NCBI GenBank assembly: GCA_944391315.1
Contig: CALXTD010000006.1
Location: forward strand, 1 to 61,905
DNA: 61,905 nt
Source: an uncultured Alphaproteobacteria bacterium
Lineage (GTDB): Bacteria; Pseudomonadota; Alphaproteobacteria; RF32; CAG-239
Direction: 5' to 3'
Of this stretch, positions 51,567 to 60,435 are shown one piece after another (position 1 is the stretch's first letter; every line of letters starts with the position of its first letter). The notes below the pieces were generated by a model, which was not told the origin of the DNA, did not search any database, and saw nothing but the letters and a program-made list of their open reading frames with translations. Made by a program: the position numbers and the translations under genes.

Positions 51567-51642
51567 GTGACATAACAATAAAACACTTCAAAACATCTTT
51601 ATTGAATTTTATGGATGTGGGGGCATTATTCAGCCGGATACG

Positions 51643-51914
51643 TTATCCCCAGAAAAATTTTGCATTTATTCACAAAAACAAGGCTTTTCCACAGGGCGCG
51701 GTTTGCATTAAATATCAAAAGATGCTAATATGACTTTTGTGACTATCGGACTATGATTTTAATTTTGCAATTTTTTTCATAGAGGTACAATCAATGAATA
51801 TGTATAAAAAATTTCAGTCGCCGTTAGGATATCAGGCGACAGATAGTCAGATTGATAGTTATGGTGTTGATCACAGCTGCTTTTCTACACGTGATGAATT
51901 GGAATATCAATTTG
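51643..51914 (+). repeat. ~270-bp near-identical direct repeat, copy 1 (promoter region plus first 40 codons of the toxin-like gene); copy 2 is 53634-53904
   Basis: Aligned by eye from ttatccccagaaaa to gaatatcaatttg; weaker homology continues to about 52140 and 54125. Confidence 0.93.
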
Positions 51915-52414
51915 CAAGACAAAATAAGGAAAACCAACTCATTCAGAACTACAACAATCAAGGGATAACGAAAAACTACCCTCAATATGGTACTAATTTC
52001 TGGGGAAATCCTGATAATAACTACGGCTTCGGCTCTTCAAACATTCACGACAATATTGAGAATAGAGAGAGACAAACCGAACAGAGTTATGGTTTGGTGA
52101 ATGAGAGGCAGAATCAAACCTTGAGACAGCAAACAAATAACAATCATATATCTAATAAAAAAGGATTCATTGACAAATTTAATGAATTAGAATATATGAC
52201 AGATATTCCACATTCAATATCGACTGGCAATAAATTTATAGATAAAAATATTGCAAAATATGGAGCTAAAGCCCTTGGAGTATTAGCGAAAAGTCCTCAA
52301 GCAAAATTTGTTGTAAAAGCGGCAGAAAAAGCTTATCCTTATATTGAAACAGGTGGTGCTAACCTTGCACGAGCTGTTGCGGCATATAGGGATAGAAATA
52401 AATCTAAAGAGTAA
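51794..52414 (+). CDS. Putative polymorphic toxin 1 (shared N-terminus, unknown basic/helical C-terminus)
   Basis: RBS agaggt; N-terminus shared with 53784; N/Q-rich linker; unique C-terminal ~85 aa; followed by a small TM gene. Confidence 0.6.
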   Translation: MNMYKKFQSPLGYQATDSQIDSYGVDHSCFSTRDELEYQFARQNKENQLIQNYNNQGITKNYPQYGTNFWGNPDNNYGFGSSNIHDNIENRERQTEQSYGLVNERQNQTLRQQTNNNHISNKKGFIDKFNELEYMTDIPHSISTGNKFIDKNIAKYGAKALGVLAKSPQAKFVVKAAEKAYPYIETGGANLARAVAAYRDRNKSKE

Positions 52415-52462
52415 GCAATTATTTCTGTTAATTGTATAAATAAAAAGAAGGGAGATAAACTC

Positions 52463-52858
52463 ATGAAATTATGGTCAAAAGAAGCCTTGATATTAGGCGG
52501 AGTATATGGAGTTTTAACAACTCCCTTCACTTATTTTCACAATCAATATTTTGAACAAATTCATTTTGTTCTTTTGGGGTTATTTGTTATATTTATGTTT
52601 CTTAATTTTTTTAACAAAACACCTTCGTTTATTTATACATTCACGAAACAACATCCTATCTTATCTTATTATTTAATATCCATTGGATGGATTGCTTATT
52701 TTTTAATTTTTGGCATAATTATTATTCCTCTTTTTGCAAGCGTTTTTGAATGGAATGATACGGACATTAAAATTGTAGTAGATATATTTGATATTATTTG
52801 TACTTATGGAATTCCTGTTTCTTTGCTTTTTGCTTTTATAAAAGCTCGAAGAAAATAA
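52463..52858 (+). CDS. Four-TM protein, putative cognate immunity protein
   Basis: RBS ggag, very AT-rich, four hydrophobic segments, directly downstream of toxin 1. Confidence 0.6.
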   Translation: MKLWSKEALILGGVYGVLTTPFTYFHNQYFEQIHFVLLGLFVIFMFLNFFNKTPSFIYTFTKQHPILSYYLISIGWIAYFLIFGIIIIPLFASVFEWNDTDIKIVVDIFDIICTYGIPVSLLFAFIKARRK

Positions 52859-52902
52859 ATCTTTGCCCGAAAACATCTTTATTGAATTTTAAGAAAAATC
52901 AT

Positions 52903-53160
52903 TTATATTGAAAGTCAGGCGTGGGGAAAAAACTGCGTTTAGCACTGCGAGAGCGGTGCGGGACTTTGAACGGTCCTCATACATAGTTAGTCGCCCATAG
53001 TTTATATATGGGCGATATAGAAATCCCAACATGGTTGGGAAGCTTTTAGTGTATGTTCAAGGAGAGATTTCTCCCTCCCAAAGACTAAAAGAGTCATTTA
53101 ACTATGTATGATTGTTCAACTTCCCGACCGCTTTTGCAAAAAAAGTGGTCTTTTTTTTGT
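52903..53160 (+). ncRNA. Highly structured leader or antisense RNA (C4/CI-like) upstream of the HTH gene
   Basis: Multiple stems, a 13-bp long-range complementarity (52977-52989 with 53099-53111), ttgaac/gttcaa pairing, terminal terminator. Confidence 0.6.
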
Positions 53161-53184
53161 TTTTAATGTTCGGGGAGAAAAATC

Positions 53185-53625
53185 ATGGATATCAAACGCA
53201 TAAAATCTCGCGGCAAAATGGCCAACGGCGAACCTAATCCGATTGACGTTTACGTCGGTAAAAGAATGCGCCTGCGCCGGCAAATGCTTTGTCTATCTCA
53301 AGAAAAATTAGCCGCTGCGCTTGGCTTAACTTTTCAGCAAGTGCAAAAATACGAACGCGGCTTAAACCGCATGGGCGCCAACCGTTTGTGGGATATTGCC
53401 TCGGTTTTGAATGTTCCGATAAACTACTTCTTTGACGGTATGGACAGCCAAATCCGCCGCCAAAGTCCGAGCCAACTTTACGGCGCAGGCATCCCTTTTT
53501 CCGTTAATAAAAGTGACCCGCTGTTCAGCATGGAAAATATCGAGCTGGTTGCCGCCCTCTCTAAAATCAAAAACCCCAGCGCCCTACTTGCTCTCCGCGA
53601 CCTTATCTCCGCCCTTTCGGCTTAG
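53185..53625 (+). CDS. XRE-family HTH transcriptional regulator
   Basis: PNPIDVYVGKRMRLRR, SQEKLAAALGLTFQQVQKYERG.NR, YFFDG (typical alphaproteobacterial XRE). Confidence 0.9.
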   Translation: MDIKRIKSRGKMANGEPNPIDVYVGKRMRLRRQMLCLSQEKLAAALGLTFQQVQKYERGLNRMGANRLWDIASVLNVPINYFFDGMDSQIRRQSPSQLYGAGIPFSVNKSDPLFSMENIELVAALSKIKNPSALLALRDLISALSA

Positions 53626-53633
53626 TAAGCATT

Positions 53634-53904
53634 TTATCCCCAGAAAATTTTTGCATTTATTCACAAAAACAAGGCTTTTCCACAGGCTGTGGTTTGCGTT
53701 AAATATCAAAATATGCTAATATGATTTTTGTGACTATCGGACTATGATTTTAATTTTGCAATTTTTTCATAGAGGTACAACCAATGAATATGTATAAAAA
53801 ATTTCAGTCGCCGTTAGGATATCAGGCGACAGATAGTCTGATTGATAGTTATGGTGTTGATCACAGTGGCTTTTCTATACGCGATGAATTGGAATATCAA
53901 TTTG
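53634..53904 (+). repeat. Direct repeat copy 2 of 51643-51914
   Basis: Near-identical sequence offset by about 1990 bp. Confidence 0.93.
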
Positions 53905-54643
53905 ATGCCAGCGGGGGCTCCCCGCTCCGCAGTATGGCACAAACTTTTGGGGCAATTCTGATAATAACTATGGTTTCGGCTCTTCAAACATTCACGGCAA
54001 TATTGAGAATAGGAATAATAATCCATTTGAAAACACGGTGAATACCTTTGGGCTGAGCCAAGCTAAACAGAGTTATGGCTTGGGAAGTGATAGTCAAAAT
54101 CAAACCTTTGGGCAAGAAAACAATAATTCTACCCAATGGGGACTGAACAACACTCCTTTAGCGCAAAACAATAATGCTTATCTTGATTTTAATGGAAAGG
54201 AATTACGTTGGCATCAAAATAATGAGGTAACTAATTCTTGGAAAGCAATGTCGGGTAAACCTGATTATCAATGTAAAGAATATGACAGCGTAAAAGATAA
54301 AGGTCCATTGCCTGAGGGAAAATGGTTGGTAAGACAATCTCAACATCAGAACTTTTATAAAGACCAAAGTAAAATAGGACAATTAAAAAGTGAATATGGT
54401 TTTGGAATCATGGGAGGATGGCCTGGAGGAAAAGATTCTTGGGGTAATAACCGCATTTGGTTGGAGCCCGCTCAAGGAACAGATAATAAAGATAGAACTA
54501 ATCTTTCAATCCACGGAGGTAAAGAATATGGCTCTAAAGGGTGTATTGATTTAACAGATAGGATGGATGAATTTACCGATAAATTTAAGAAATATGGACA
54601 TGATATGATTCTTAATGTAAAATATGATAAAGACTGTTGGTGA
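53784..54643 (+). pseudogene. Putative polymorphic toxin 2 with Tlde1/DUF2778-like C-terminus, frameshifted at about 53905-53926
   Basis: The shared N-terminus starts at 53784. Homology (PQYGTNFWG...) resumes at 53927 in the frame of ORF 54038..54643, which carries MSGK, GPLPEGKW and IHGG...GSKGCID. Confidence 0.75.
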
Positions 54644-54706
54644 TTTTTATTGTATTTAAGATAAACGCTGAATATACTTTGAATAAATTTAACCGAAGGT
54701 GCAATT

Positions 54707-55027
54707 ATGAAAAAAATCAAACTTATACCGTTTTATCTATTGTCAGGATTATATGCCTTTGCGGTTTTTATCATTGCAGTAACATATCCAGATGATATGA
54801 CAAGTGACAGCATGCCATGGAATGCAGAGGCATTAGGTTGGGCATATGAAAATAGGTTTAACTATACCATAATGACATTAACATTATTACTCATAATAAT
54901 TGCACCTACGGTTTATGCTTGGAAGAAGCGTAAAACAAATCTCAAAAAATCCTATATAATTCTATCCATTCCGGCTCTTGTTTATTTGGCGAGATATATC
55001 TATTTTACTAATTTTTATAATATATAA
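54707..55027 (+). CDS. Small three-TM protein, putative immunity to toxin 2
   Basis: Hydrophobic segments with an acidic/aromatic loop; immediately downstream of the toxin. Confidence 0.6.
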   Translation: MKKIKLIPFYLLSGLYAFAVFIIAVTYPDDMTSDSMPWNAEALGWAYENRFNYTIMTLTLLLIIIAPTVYAWKKRKTNLKKSYIILSIPALVYLARYIYFTNFYNI

Positions 55028-55076
55028 ATCCAGCTATCGTGATGACCTCACATAACTTGCGATTAGGAGGAGTTTT

Positions 55077-55370
55077 ATGCAGCTTTAGGCTAACAGCATT
55101 ATCAATATGAAAAAAAAGCCTCCTTTATTGATGTCTTTTTTGTATTGGCATGGTGTTTTGAAAAACTGTTAATGTTTAGCTTATCTACAATTTTTAATTT
55201 ATTTTTTTCAATGGAGTACTTACGAGATTACATTTTTGGGAATGTATGATTATAGGATATGTGTTTTACAGCTTTTTTTCTCTTACTGAAATTCCTTATT
55301 TTGATATTATAGGGTGGTTTTGCTATTTTCATATCGCCTTGAGCTGTTATCAAAATAGATTTTTATTATC
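55077..55370 (+). pseudogene. Possible decayed small membrane-protein gene (orphan immunity?)
   Basis: Strong RBS aggagg, ATG at 55077 with an early stop, then T-rich hydrophobic-coding fragments. Confidence 0.3.
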
Positions 55371-55425
55371 ATAAATATACGCTGCCCAACTTCTTAAACA
55401 TCTTTATTTAATTTTAAGAAAAATC

Positions 55426-55478
55426 ATGGATATCAAACGCATAAAATCTCGCGGCAGAATGGCCAACGGTGAACCTAA
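55426..55478 (+). pseudogene. Truncated copy of the first 17 codons of the XRE HTH gene
   Basis: atggatatcaaacgcataaaatctcgcggc.gaatggccaacgg.gaacctaa matches 53185-53237, then stops at a terminator hairpin. Confidence 0.85.
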
Positions 55479-55520
55479 AAAGAGCAGCCTTATGGGCTGC
55501 TCTGTATTTTTGGTATTTGC

Positions 55521-56024: not shown

Positions 56025-56585
56025 TCACAGCATCAACAAAAGAGCGATTAACAAAACGCCATAAAGAATTACACCAGAAACATACATAAAGGCTATTCTA
56101 AAATCTGCCCTTGATGGAATCGCGTTTTCGATAATGATTGTTTGCAGCAGCACATAACCGATATACCACCATATCGTATGCGGGATATAGGGCAAGACAT
56201 AGCGGTTTATATAAAAAGACAAAGGCAATAATATTAGTGGTGCCAGCGCTGCAGGAACCGCGTTATAAAAGGTTATATTGCGAAAGCCGACACTGCCCAT
56301 AACATAGCCGCCAACAGGATCTTTTTTGGGAAATAATGTGAAATTTACCGGATGTGCATTCAAAAACAAACCAACCAGAAAATGCATCAGCTCATGCAAG
56401 ATTGTTCCGGGGATATTTACCAAAGCGCAGACAAACATGCTGCTGTAAGTTGCGTATTTTATTCTCATCAGCATAACAACCGCCAGTATGGTATAAAAGC
56501 GGTTGTTAAAAATGCTCTCGACGACTTCAGGGCTGTTTATATAGCGAAAAAAATTATCAATCGCCCTTATGGTTACGTCAATCAT
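56025..56585 (-). CDS. Membrane protein with HExxH motif (putative zinc metalloprotease)
   Basis: PGTILHELMH, hydrophobic segments, PS..D near the C-terminus. Confidence 0.6.
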   Translation of the reverse strand: MIDVTIRAIDNFFRYINSPEVVESIFNNRFYTILAVVMLMRIKYATYSSMFVCALVNIPGTILHELMHFLVGLFLNAHPVNFTLFPKKDPVGGYVMGSVGFRNITFYNAVPAALAPLILLPLSFYINRYVLPYIPHTIWWYIGYVLLQTIIIENAIPSRADFRIAFMYVSGVILYGVLLIALLLML

Positions 56586-56586
56586 A

Positions 56587-57180
56587 TTACCCCCGCTTTA
56601 AAACTGCTAATCCGGCCAAATAAGTGTTTAATAACAATTTGCAGAGGTTTTTCTTATTAACCATACGGAAGTCATTAATTATCGATGTGGTTAAGAATGA
56701 ACTCATGGCAAACAAGCTGAGCCACAATACTTGTCTTGCGACTTTTTTCTTGCGGGCGTTCAAATGGGTATAAACCGCATCAAATGAAGGCTGCCACAAC
56801 TGCATCATGCGAATAATCATGGCGCGGTAGCCTTGCGGCTGCTTGCTGGCATTTAGGTGATAATTATACAGCAAAAACCAAAGATTTGAATTTTGCAGCA
56901 CAAAACTGACAAAGATATCAAGATAAGTGTTCAAATTTTTATAAGCGCTTCTGTCCGGCTTGACCTGAGCCATTTTATCATACAATCTTTTTAAGGTTTG
57001 GAGGTTTATGGCTGCGACCAAATTATCCATGTTTGAAAACTGATTATATATCGTTCCGACCGAACAACCTGAGGCCTCAGACAATTTTCTGGCGGTCAGA
57101 TATTCCATCCCTTTGCTTTCGACAATCTCTCGGCCAACGCTTATCAGATATGTGCGGATATTTTCTTTGCTCTCTGTCAT
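56587..57180 (-). CDS. TetR-family regulator
   Basis: LTARKLSEASGCSVGTIYNQF HTH. Confidence 0.85.
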   Translation of the reverse strand: MTESKENIRTYLISVGREIVESKGMEYLTARKLSEASGCSVGTIYNQFSNMDNLVAAINLQTLKRLYDKMAQVKPDRSAYKNLNTYLDIFVSFVLQNSNLWFLLYNYHLNASKQPQGYRAMIIRMMQLWQPSFDAVYTHLNARKKKVARQVLWLSLFAMSSFLTTSIINDFRMVNKKNLCKLLLNTYLAGLAVLKRG

Positions 57181-58132: not shown

Positions 58133-59521
58133 ATGAAAAAAGTTGCTTTTTGCGCCGTTTCGGGTAACGGCATGAGCCCTTTGGCTCAGATTTTTGTGAA
58201 AAAAGGTTATCAGGTATTTGGTTCTGACCAAAGTTTTGATGCCGGAAGAGACCATGCTAATCGTGAGGCTCTGGTAGCTGCCGGTATTAAGCTGGTTCCA
58301 CAAGATGGTAGCGGAATTTCTGACGACTTGGAATTTTTGTGCGTATCCTCTGCCATATCTGATGACAATCCCGACGTGATTGCCGCAAAGCAAAAGAACA
58401 TCCCTATTCTTAAACGTTCAGAGCTCTTAGCTAAGCTCTTTCATGAATATAATTATAATATTGCTGTCGGCGGAACGGCCGGAAAAACCACAACAACCGC
58501 AATGATTGGCTTTATCCTCGATAAGCTCGGGAAAAAGCCGTGCATGATTAACGGCGGTATGCTGCGCGATTATGAATCAAACATCGGGCTGCCAAACTAT
58601 ATTTATAACAACAATGATATTTGTGTGGTTGAGGCTGATGAAAGTGATGGTTCCATCCGTTCTTATCATCCTTATATTGCCTTGGTAAATAATATCTCTC
58701 ATGACCATGTGGATATTCCGACTTTGGTTGAGTATTTTAGCGAGTTTGCTTCTCATGCTCGTCATGCATTGGTGGTTAATGCCGATTGTCCGCTTGCCTC
58801 AAAGCTCAATCATGCAAACAAAATCACTTTCTCGATTTTATCTTCCGATGCGGATTTATATGCCTCAGACATCAAAGCAATAGATAACGGGGTTTCTTAT
58901 AAGCTTAACGGCAAAAAATATTTTCTCAATCTTATCGGCAAGTTTAATGTTTCCAACGCCTTGGCCGCCATTGCTTGCTGCAAAGTTCTTGGCATTAGCC
59001 CTGACGAAGCGGCAACAGCTTTGCAAGGTTTTCATGGAATTAAACGCCGTCTTGAAGTCGTCGGAACCAATAACCGCAATATTACTCTGATTGATGACTT
59101 TGCTCACAATGCCAGCAAAATTGAGGCCTCACTCAAGGCGCTTAAAGAATATTCCGGTCGCCTCATCGTTATGTATCAATCGCACAAGCCTTTTTCGGCA
59201 CGCACGACCGGTGAAGAAGACGGCGTGGTCTTTGGACAAGTGCTGGATAAAAACGATATTTTGCTGATGCCGGAAATTTATATGCGCGACCCAATTAAAG
59301 ATGCGGATATATCCGGTGCAGACTTGGTTCGTTTTGCTCAGAACAATGGTGTAAACGCCCTCTTCCTTGAGACTAAAGACAAGGTTCGTGACTATATTTT
59401 GCAAAACGCTCAAAACGGTGACCGAATCGTCATCATGGGTGCAAGGGACAACTCTCTTCCGGATTTCAGCCGCCAGCTTTTGCAAGACTTGACTGACAAG
59501 CCTGAAGCCGTTAATTCTTAA
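58133..59521 (+). CDS. MurC/Mpl-family Mur ligase
   Basis: SGNGMSPLA, GSD, GTAGKTTT, EADESD, GIKRRLE, DDFAHN. Its position next to an LD-carboxypeptidase suggests a recycling role. Confidence 0.82.
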   Translation: MKKVAFCAVSGNGMSPLAQIFVKKGYQVFGSDQSFDAGRDHANREALVAAGIKLVPQDGSGISDDLEFLCVSSAISDDNPDVIAAKQKNIPILKRSELLAKLFHEYNYNIAVGGTAGKTTTTAMIGFILDKLGKKPCMINGGMLRDYESNIGLPNYIYNNNDICVVEADESDGSIRSYHPYIALVNNISHDHVDIPTLVEYFSEFASHARHALVVNADCPLASKLNHANKITFSILSSDADLYASDIKAIDNGVSYKLNGKKYFLNLIGKFNVSNALAAIACCKVLGISPDEAATALQGFHGIKRRLEVVGTNNRNITLIDDFAHNASKIEASLKALKEYSGRLIVMYQSHKPFSARTTGEEDGVVFGQVLDKNDILLMPEIYMRDPIKDADISGADLVRFAQNNGVNALFLETKDKVRDYILQNAQNGDRIVIMGARDNSLPDFSRQLLQDLTDKPEAVNS

Positions 59522-59541
59522 GCTTGTTTCGGAGGTGCGTT

Positions 59542-60435
59542 ATGTATTATCCCTTAACCCCAGGTGATAAAATCGGACTGGTTTCACCCTCTCGAAACGT
59601 AACCGAGCAAGAGATTGCCAAAGGTGTGGAATATCTGCGGTCACTCGGCTTGATTCCGGTTATGGGAAAAAATGCATTTAACGCCTTTCGCTATATGGGC
59701 GGAACAGCCGAAGAACGCGCCAAAGATATTATGGGCTTTTTTCTTGCCCCTGAGATTAAGGCTATTTTTGCCACGTCCGGCGGTGACGGAAGCCAATATA
59801 TTTTGCCGCTTTTGGATTTTGGCCTCATTAAAAAAAATCCCAAACCCCTGTTTGGTTTTAGTGACACAACGGCTTTGCAAAACGCTTTGGTGGAAAAATG
59901 CGGTCTTATTTGCCCAAGCGGTCTCACTCTCAATTATGATTTTCGGAGCGAATGTCTTAACAAAACGCTTGATGCAAGCGTCAAAAACATGATTTTTGGT
60001 GACGAGTTTTGTTATTGCGCAGGCAAGCCGGTTATTGTCGGTGAGGCAAAAGGCAAGCTTATCGGCGGATGTTTAAGCCTGTTTCGCAATCTGTGCGGAA
60101 CGCCTTATTTTCCATCTCTCAAAGGAGCGATTTTGTTGGTGGAAGATGTGGAAGAGCCGACCTATAAAATTGATTTGATGCTTCAACAAATTTCTCAATG
60201 CAAAGATTTTGATAAGCTTAGCGGTCTTATCTTCGGGCGCTGCTTGGACTGCCCCATTCGCCGCGAAGGTGATGGCTCGATTGATGAGGTTATCTCCTAT
60301 TTTAGTGAAAAGCTTTCTATCCCCGTCATCAAAGACTTTCCTTACGGGCATGAGTTTGAGCGCGTTATGCTGCCCTTAGGGGCTGAGGTTAAACTCCTTA
60401 GCTCAGCCAACGGTTGTCAAGTTGCTTCCATATAA
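59542..60435 (+). CDS. S66-family LD-carboxypeptidase (LdcA-like)
   Basis: VSPS, GFSDTT, GGCLS, LLVEDVEE, YGH (Ser-Glu-His triad). Confidence 0.88.
   Translation: MYYPLTPGDKIGLVSPSRNVTEQEIAKGVEYLRSLGLIPVMGKNAFNAFRYMGGTAEERAKDIMGFFLAPEIKAIFATSGGDGSQYILPLLDFGLIKKNPKPLFGFSDTTALQNALVEKCGLICPSGLTLNYDFRSECLNKTLDASVKNMIFGDEFCYCAGKPVIVGEAKGKLIGGCLSLFRNLCGTPYFPSLKGAILLVEDVEEPTYKIDLMLQQISQCKDFDKLSGLIFGRCLDCPIRREGDGSIDEVISYFSEKLSIPVIKDFPYGHEFERVMLPLGAEVKLLSSANGCQVASI

Follow-up and report, generated by a model that had tools for sequence, protein, structure and literature searches.

Two toxin-like cassettes in a chromosomal island

We analyzed a stretch of DNA of 61,905 nucleotides (hereafter, the window) from an uncultured alphaproteobacterium (assembly GCA_944391315.1, contig CALXTD010000006.1). 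The window is contig C6 of a 1.53-Mb genome, which is distributed over 66 contigs and is 97.9% complete. Between positions 51591 and 55503, it contains two cassettes, each composed of a toxin-like gene and a small gene for a membrane protein, all on the forward strand. The first toxin gene (gene 1, 51794–52414) is an intact open reading frame of 206 codons and is followed by putative immunity gene 1 (52463–52858). The second toxin gene (gene 2) begins at 53784 and continues in another frame to 54643, and putative immunity gene 2 lies at 54707–55027. This region is very probably a chromosomal island with two cassettes of a polymorphic toxin-immunity family, not described before, that occurs in uncultured Alphaproteobacteria of the gut and rumen. 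Because gene 2 is broken, the window is predicted to hold one working toxin gene, not two.

A repeat scan of the window revealed a 21-nucleotide unit-boundary motif at 51591, 52871 and 55396. A full unit has the order boundary motif, XRE-type regulator gene, upstream region of ~150 nucleotides, toxin gene and small membrane-protein gene. Unit 2 is complete, the XRE gene has been deleted from unit 1, and unit 3 is represented only by a 62-nucleotide XRE stub followed by a strong terminator. The original prediction, made from the sequence alone, had noted that the two toxin genes share a near-identical upstream region and N-terminus. This was borne out by two direct repeats (51643–51776 and 53634–53767, 95% identity; 51758–51914 and 53748–53904, 92% identity), which together form one duplicated block of ~272 nucleotides that covers the upstream region and codons 1–40 of both genes. 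An additional common stretch (51980–52065 and 53927–54012; 86 nucleotides, 87% identity) encodes PQYGTNFWGN..NNYGFGSSNIH. Further downstream the C-termini are unrelated, as had been proposed, and each is followed by a different small hydrophobic open reading frame (131 residues with three hydropathy segments and 106 residues with two).

The gene 1 product consists of an N-terminal domain (residues 1 to ~95; hereafter, the N-domain), a linker rich in Asn and Gln, and a helical C-terminus of ~85 residues. In a model of the protein, the N-domain had pLDDT values of 75–88 and the C-terminus values below 50. No Pfam or NCBIfam family matched gene 1, and a fold search with the full model gave a best Z score of 5.6, which fell on the low-confidence helical tail. 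Its full-length relatives (P0001–P0005 and P0007) were 55–96% identical. Putative immunity protein 1, a multi-pass membrane protein of 131 residues without a Pfam hit, has hydropathy segments at residues 29–53, 65–98 and 104–126, and a 99% identical copy occurs in locus L027. As a guess, such a multi-pass partner would suit a membrane-directed toxin.

A conserved N-terminal domain

A word-indexed search with the N-domain identified 480 proteins at E≤0.01, and an exhaustive HMMER search of 1.84 billion representatives detected 241 clusters (50% identity) at E≤0.001, including 175 at E≤1e-10. The domain was present in 247 of the 258 proteins that were fetched; in 200 it was complete and N-terminal, and in 180 of these it started at residue 1. 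No signal-like hydrophobic run was found in 150 of the proteins. In an alignment of 72 sequences from several genera, 18 columns were invariant and column identity averaged 72%; the AlphaFold2 model of the N-domain that was based on this alignment reached a mean pLDDT of 81.1 and a pTM of 0.71. The domain is predicted to contain a 24-residue helix (residues 32–55) wrapped by loops rich in Gly and aromatic residues, and a second helix (84–97). The linker that follows it is rich in Asn, Gln, Ser and Gly.

No Pfam family covered the N-domain in the same 150 proteins or in 10 long members; in particular, recognized trafficking domains (PAAR, RHS, LXG, MuF, two-partner secretion (TPS), VirD4-binding and others) were not detected by Pfam over the N-domain of the 150 proteins. 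The best match of the domain profile among PDB sequences had an E-value of 0.61. Foldseek with the N-domain model gave no hits at E≤0.001, the ESM Atlas gave no usable match, and an exhaustive VIA-align comparison had a best Z score of 4.7, with none of 48,161 chains at Z≥5, a result which does not by itself prove that the fold is new. A literature search at the level of listings returned no description of the domain or of toxins in this clade. The earlier view that the shared N-terminus lacks a signal peptide and matches no known carrier therefore held for the 150 proteins and for the families and folds searched. The ~95-residue N-terminus is a real, conserved and previously undescribed domain. 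Its position and conservation point to a role in trafficking, as the constant delivery module of these proteins, and it is a compact query with which new toxin tips and immunity genes can be sought.

Variable C-termini, partner genes and orphan cassettes

The C-terminal parts fell into 19–25 sequence clusters (25 among the 171 proteins with a C-terminal part of at least 60 residues), with the reservation that single linkage over-merges them via the shared linker, as in cluster T0. A Pfam scan of 150 of these 171 proteins (21 members of the largest cluster were dropped) hit 13 families: GH108 (16 proteins), SAA (11), PG_binding_3 (8), Tlde1_dom (8), pesticin (PF16754; 4), VgrG3-like C (3), YkuD (3), SLT (2), phage lysozyme (2), GH46 (1) and other single hits. 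In PMC12419801, prok-SAA is described as a lipocone toxin tip predicted to cut lipid head groups or carriers outside the cytoplasm. Judged by their families, the typed C-termini are predicted to act on the cell envelope, because the Pfam families are of cell-wall types and prok-SAA is described as an extracytoplasmic lipid tip.

To describe the neighborhoods we kept 80 loci of 296 confirmed places in species-representative genomes. In these, the toxin gene was followed by genes for small membrane proteins, exported proteins or lipoproteins. Proteins with the same C-terminal cluster were followed by the same downstream cluster in 113 of 444 pairs, and proteins with different C-termini in 11 of 2331 pairs, a count that is descriptive, since the genomes are related and not independent. 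Orphan cassettes truncated at the 5' end were common; they start at N-domain positions 28–62 and retain the partner gene. Two such orphans with their partner genes lie on contig C5 of the genome studied here, which in total has one intact toxin gene, one broken full-length copy, the two orphan cassettes on C5 and four partner genes. The orphans on C5 and in relatives retain the stretch that encodes PQYGTNFWG..NNYGFG, and this stretch most likely provides the homology for swapping C-termini into the expressed copy.

Polymorphic toxin-immunity systems were reportedly defined by Zhang et al. in 2012. Variable tips, a covarying adjacent gene and orphan cassettes without a 5' part, all of which belong to such systems, were found here, and a recognized trafficking domain was not; the definition is restated in PMC12419801. 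The architecture that had been proposed for the locus was thus upheld: the homologs carry many C-termini rather than one or two fixed non-toxic ones, the downstream genes covary with them, and the N-domain matches no described carrier among the families and folds searched. We propose that a full-length toxin is composed of the folded N-domain of ~95 residues without a signal peptide, the Asn/Gln-rich linker and an exchangeable C-terminal toxin, whose target in most typed cases would be peptidoglycan or its lipid carrier, reached from the periplasm, and that the adjacent gene would encode the cognate immunity protein, either membrane-bound or exported.

GH108 with PG_binding_3, lysozyme and SLT domains that lack a signal and are followed by small multi-pass open reading frames also resemble endolysin-holin pairs. 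The cassettes could then be modules for lysis or cell-wall remodeling, each with a cytoplasmic endolysin-like murein hydrolase and a holin-like protein, either derived from phages or serving autolysis or release. This is very improbable. There are up to 17 copies per genome, each truncated orphan cassette retains its partner gene, and the partners covary with the tip and include exported soluble proteins, lipoproteins and some proteins encoded on the opposite strand (clusters c3, c7, c8, c12 and c17). In addition, some tips are not lytic, among them SAA/lipocone and the helical C-terminus of gene 1, and the flanking genes are of housekeeping rather than phage types.

A separate pair of genes recurs beside the N-domain toxins (loci L041, L048, L057 and L065; representative L008:8679–9371). 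It codes for a protein of ~230 residues without the N-domain (cluster c10) and a 171-residue membrane protein (c11), and may be a second, N-domain-less type of toxin-immunity pair.

Disruption of the second toxin gene

The original prediction had treated the gene at 53784 as one open gene. In fact, the open reading frame that starts there ends at 54041 after 85 residues, and the homologous continuation lies in another frame, which is open at 53906–54643; the earlier reading had crossed a frame break. The 5' remnant (53784–53903, +) comprises N-domain codons 1–40, after which the frame continues out of register to the stop at 54041. It is followed by a GC-rich hairpin junction of 23 nucleotides (53904–53926, +; GATGCCAGCGGGGGCTCCCCGCT), which was located by alignment to an intact orthologue. 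The remainder of the gene (53927–54643, +), in the second frame, encodes the N-domain from PQYG on, the Asn/Gln linker and a Tlde1-like domain of the YkuD-fold L,D-transpeptidase type. Compared with the intact 300-residue orthologue in the near-identical strain of locus L027 (protein P0014), 800 of 823 positions outside the junction were identical. At the junction, 66 nucleotides that encode ARQNKENQLIQNYNNQGITKNY, part of the long helix of the domain, have been swapped for the 23-nucleotide GC hairpin, with a net loss of 43 nucleotides and a shift of the frame.

We ruled out an assembly artefact, as gap-free contigs span 53904–53927 in sequencing runs of three studies (X1 record 3, X3 record 20 and X11 record 11; one of the runs is possibly the source sample). 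A programmed -1 frameshift at the G-run was also rejected, since 22 residues of the long helix are missing in any frame. The hairpin is not a genome-wide repeat element either: the genome has just two copies of it, each at a cassette boundary. Its other copy stands directly 5' of an orphan 5'-truncated Tlde1-type cassette (C5:60430), and the same junction was found at the orthologous place in locus L008 (position 9978). Because this hairpin directly precedes the truncated Tlde1-type cassette on C5, the break in gene 2 resembles a trace left when sequence was exchanged with an orphan cassette. Gene 2 would then be a Tlde1-like member that was inactivated when an orphan-cassette boundary, the GC hairpin, replaced part of the N-domain, with the immunity gene retained. 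The gene is also broken in the strain of locus L038, but at another position. Intact and broken alleles both occur among near-identical strains, and the immunity gene is kept in all strains.

The C-terminus of gene 2 had been described as having motifs of Tlde1/DUF2778 effectors. A place in the YkuD/Tlde1 L,D-transpeptidase superfamily is supported by sequence, weakly by score, and a PF10908 match above the cut-off was not obtained. The window copy matched YkuD (PF03734) with an E-value of 5e-4 and 21 bits (cut-off, 23.4 bits) and had no hit to PF10908 (Tlde1/DUF2778) at E≤1. The intact orthologue P0014 scored 23.5 bits with YkuD, and the C5 paralogue scored 26.9 bits with YkuD, above the cut-off, and 28 bits with Tlde1_dom PF10908 (cut-off, 30.1 bits). 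PF10908 was hit at E≤0.001 in 8 of 150 relatives. A comparison of the second frame of gene 2 with PDB sequences gave no hits at E≤1. Of the two motifs that had been pointed out in this region, GP.P.G.W is present as GPLPEGKW, and HxxGSxGC is not; the actual arrangement is H-x6-S-x-G-C, within IHGGKEYGSKGC. The catalytic motif of Tlde1 is H..(S/T)HGC, and in PMC9638812 the Tlde1a residues are given as H121, S128, H129, G130 and C131. The H, S, G and C of IHGGKEYGSKGC have the spacing of H121, S128, G130 and C131, and the second His (H129) is replaced by Lys.

Putative immunity gene 2 is an open reading frame for a membrane protein of 106 residues with hydropathy segments at 4–28 and 51–73. Its relatives (87–94% identical) follow Tlde1-type cassettes in loci L027, L038, L058, L062 and L067, and a paralogue follows the C5 cassette.

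Distribution of the N-domain

In a sample of the class, the N-domain was found in 2 of 401 genomes, including the one studied here. Within the order, it was present in 114 of 283 genomes and in 7 of 24 genera (g1, 12/14; g2, 33/56; g317, 21/29; g325, 38/50; g327, 5/14; g328, 3/12; g310, 1/36), with up to 17 matches in one genome. The 80 loci come from uncultured Alphaproteobacteria of animal and human gut and rumen, apart from one 3-kb contig that was labeled otherwise. We also searched sequencing runs, in the form of contigs, and the runs that contained the stretch were mostly recorded as chicken gut metagenomes. Outside the order, the domain was observed in a 437-residue open frame of a genome of family f107 in the same class (G385:C50:44767–45036, E-value 1e-33), a possible case of horizontal transfer.

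A clade-limited distribution, with 7 of 24 genera positive, together with the conservation of the N-domain, whose 72% mean column identity over 72 sequences suits docking on a conserved machine, would fit a dedicated export or injection system that is encoded elsewhere in the genome, is limited to the same genera and recognizes this domain. No candidate for such an unrecognized system was found in searches that covered only named families (type VI secretion system (T6SS), type IV secretion system (T4SS), flagellar, sheath, Ton and Tol), and we regard this explanation as rather improbable.

With 241 clusters (50% identity) and as many as 17 matches in a genome of 1.5 Mb, the family would give a widespread uncultured gut and rumen lineage of little-known ecology a large and diverse toxin arsenal.

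Regulatory elements and flanking genes

The first boundary repeat (51591–51611; AAACATCTTTATTGAATTTTA) and copy 1 of the upstream region occupy 51591–51793 (+; repeat families D2 and D4). A ribosome-binding site, GAGG, precedes the gene 1 ATG by 7 nucleotides. A BLAST search with 51591–51793 found the second copy at 53634–53783 (94%; forward strand, repeat families D1 and D2) and further copies in loci L027, L037 and L038. Repeat and terminator scans placed the second boundary repeat (52871–52891) at the start of a segment (52871–53184, +) that continues with a single-copy stretch of 291 nucleotides 5' of the XRE gene. This stretch (52890–53180), which has no other copy in the genome, shows 99% conservation in L027 and L038 and ends in a terminator-like hairpin with a T-run (53126–53150). 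It could be a leader or a small RNA, and no Rfam family matches 52890–53180. The XRE-family helix-turn-helix regulator that lies 5' of cassette 2 (53185–53625, +; 146 residues) matched HTH_3 (PF01381, E-value 7e-11) and has orthologues in L027 and L038. The island ends with the third boundary, a truncated 5' end of an XRE gene (homology at 55417–55478) and a strong bidirectional terminator at 55481–55503 (whole segment 55396–55503, +; repeat families D4 and D6, terminator scan). A promoter scan found 19 candidates when 17.7 were expected, which is not above chance.

In 20 of the 80 loci, a protein of 110–260 residues (cluster c1; for example, L014:9417–9914 and L035:9136–9885) is encoded directly 5' of a full-length toxin gene and takes the place of the XRE regulator of the window. 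Its long forms have a weak match to HTH_19 (E-value 0.008) and a conserved C-terminal part without a family.

The island is flanked by a pyruvate:ferredoxin oxidoreductase gene on one side and by TetR, Mur-ligase family, LD-carboxypeptidase and cytidylyltransferase genes on the other. The TetR-family regulator (56587–57180, reverse strand) adjoins a 186-residue multi-pass membrane protein (56025–56585, reverse strand) that has an HExxH-like motif, HELMH, and no Pfam match; this pair is kept beside the toxin island in L007, L027 and L038. The Mur-ligase family gene and the LD-carboxypeptidase (S66) gene, which both code for enzymes of a peptidoglycan-recycling type, lie at 58133–60435, ~3 kb 3' of the island, and their presence there may be a coincidence.

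Possible routes of delivery

The original prediction had suggested that the N-domain directs loading onto a phage-like particle or an unlinked secretion system and had called for a search for co-occurring secretion or phage-tail loci. No secretion genes recurred beside the toxins in the 80 loci, and no partner machine was identified. Toxin loci were near T4SS-cluster genes in 1 of 80 cases (L056) and near tolB in 2 of 80, which we take as chance. A contractile sheath gene was not found in the genome studied here, so loading onto a phage-like particle found no support. We excluded delivery by a T6SS, as TssC (PF05943) was detected in none of the 283 genomes of the order by a search that detects the E. 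coli control. Delivery by the flagellar exporter was excluded as well: FlhA was absent from three toxin-bearing genera (0/29 genomes in g317, 0/50 in g325 and 0/12 in g328), which hold 62 toxin-positive genomes (21, 38 and 3, respectively).

FlhA itself was all-or-none by genus. It occurs in 15 of the 24 genera, and those that lack it include g309, g310, g317, g325 and g328, which means that entire genera of the family have lost or gained motility.

After the T6SS, the flagellar exporter and the sheath are set aside, a T4SS is the only recognized Sec-independent machine common to all toxin-bearing genomes. VirB4 was detected in 271 of 283 genomes and 23 of 24 genera, with one copy each, and VirB8 was found in each of the five toxin-positive genomes in which VirB4 gave no hit; the genome studied here has VirB3, VirB4, two VirB8, VirB9 and two VirD4-like genes, the latter on contigs C17 and C27. 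The toxins might then be contact-dependent effectors of a core chromosomal T4SS of the order, with the N-domain as an unusual N-terminal signal for the coupling protein. In function, this would parallel the bacteria-killing T4SS of Xanthomonas, which has cell-wall hydrolase effectors and periplasmic immunity proteins. However, the T4SS is equally present in 17 toxin-free genera, and the phyletic pattern thus gives no link; its genes are near a toxin only at L056, and no XVIPCD-type family was among the 13 Pfam families hit. Moreover, known T4SS signals are C-terminal, whereas the C-terminus of these toxins is the variable part. We consider this explanation unlikely.

The T4SS cluster with VirB3, VirB4, two VirB8 and VirB9 (C8:12400–48500; L090 and L091) adjoins genes resembling those of a type IVb pilus (T2SSE ATPase, PilO and secretin), and its VirB9 carries a SPOR domain. 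Two giant repeat proteins (1574 and 1459 residues) are encoded at its end, the first of which has beta-flower and RHS repeats. A single-copy VirB4 in 271 of 283 genomes of the order is unusual for genomes so small.

The route that we tentatively prefer, and which is quite possible, is bacteriocin-like, as in pesticin and colicin M. No dedicated injector would be needed for release of the toxin, which would cross the outer membrane of related cells by means of its N-domain and linker and would then act in the periplasm, the site of the immunity proteins. We prefer this route because it agrees best with the order of the domains, the periplasmic payloads, the location of immunity, the absence of a linked machine and the repressor-type regulators found upstream.

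Several observations weigh against the bacteriocin-like route or limit the wider interpretation. Neither a TonB C-terminal domain nor a TonB-dependent receptor was found in the 97.9% complete genome, and no lysis gene was recognized. The N-domain is predicted to be folded, unlike the disordered translocation domains of colicins. For about two thirds of the C-termini Pfam gave no match, such that the predominance of cell-wall types covers the typed ones only. One long member has a weak nuclease-like PBECR2 hit (21 bits; cut-off, 27 bits), and such a tip would need to enter the cytoplasm. The covariation count is descriptive and cluster T0 is over-merged, as described above. Finally, the organism is known from metagenomes only, and toxin activity, release and uptake are all predicted.

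We dropped the idea that a conserved DTYGV stretch is a TonB box, as the genome has no TonB or TonB-dependent receptor. A Tol-linked route is conceivable because TolB and three genes of the MotA/ExbB/TolQ type are present in the genome. The tolB gene is located alone (C22:14371–15693), away from any tolQRA. A complex prediction of the N-domain and linker (residues 1–125) with TolB had a score of 0.01 (mark 0.32), which speaks neither for nor against binding.

It is possible that the N-domain marks a new delivery pathway for periplasm-acting toxins in Gram-negative bacteria without a T6SS or TonB, either Ton-independent import of small bacteriocins across the outer membrane or the first N-terminal signal for a bacteria-killing T4SS that is core to the order. 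Payloads of T6SS type (Tlde1, VgrG3-C and GH108) would be deployable in a clade that lacks a T6SS, which means that an unknown route must exist. If the bacteriocin-like route is true, the N-domain would be a modular carrier for periplasm-acting enzymes.

Comparison with known systems

The Tlde1-Tldi1 pair is an effector and immunity pair of the Salmonella T6SS (PMC9638812). The C-terminus of gene 2 has the YkuD/Tlde1 signature with the same H/S/G/C spacing and would be expected to act in the periplasm. However, the T6SS sheath gene is missing from all 283 genomes here, Lys stands for the second His of the motif, the window copy is broken, and the membrane immunity protein is unrelated to Tldi1 by Pfam.

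In contact-dependent inhibition (CDI; CdiA-CT), Rhs and MafB systems, as in the family described here, a constant N-terminal part is combined with a variable tip and a cognate immunity protein, and 5'-truncated orphans carry a short conserved stretch of homology. The proteins of the new family differ in that they have no RHS, PAAR, haemagglutinin-repeat, VENN or DUF1020 domain and no signal peptide, and are mostly 150–450 residues long.

The X-Tfe/X-Tfi pairs of the Xanthomonas T4SS are similar in their payloads, which target the wall or lipids, and in their periplasmic immunity, and a T4SS is the only conserved injector here. The XVIPCD recognition domain of Xanthomonas T4SS effectors is C-terminal, whereas the conserved domain here is N-terminal and unrelated to XVIPCD.

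Pesticin and colicin M depend on TonB and its dependent receptors, both of which are missing from the genome studied here. The N-domain is also unrelated to these bacteriocins in sequence and predicted fold, and the genes are chromosomal and multi-copy, with orphan cassettes. In other respects the family resembles them: the order of the domains is alike, a signal peptide is absent, the toxins are predicted to target peptidoglycan or its lipid carrier, the immunity proteins face the periplasm, no secretion machine is linked to the genes, and the pesticin lysozyme domain itself (PF16754) occurs in 4 of 150 members of the family.

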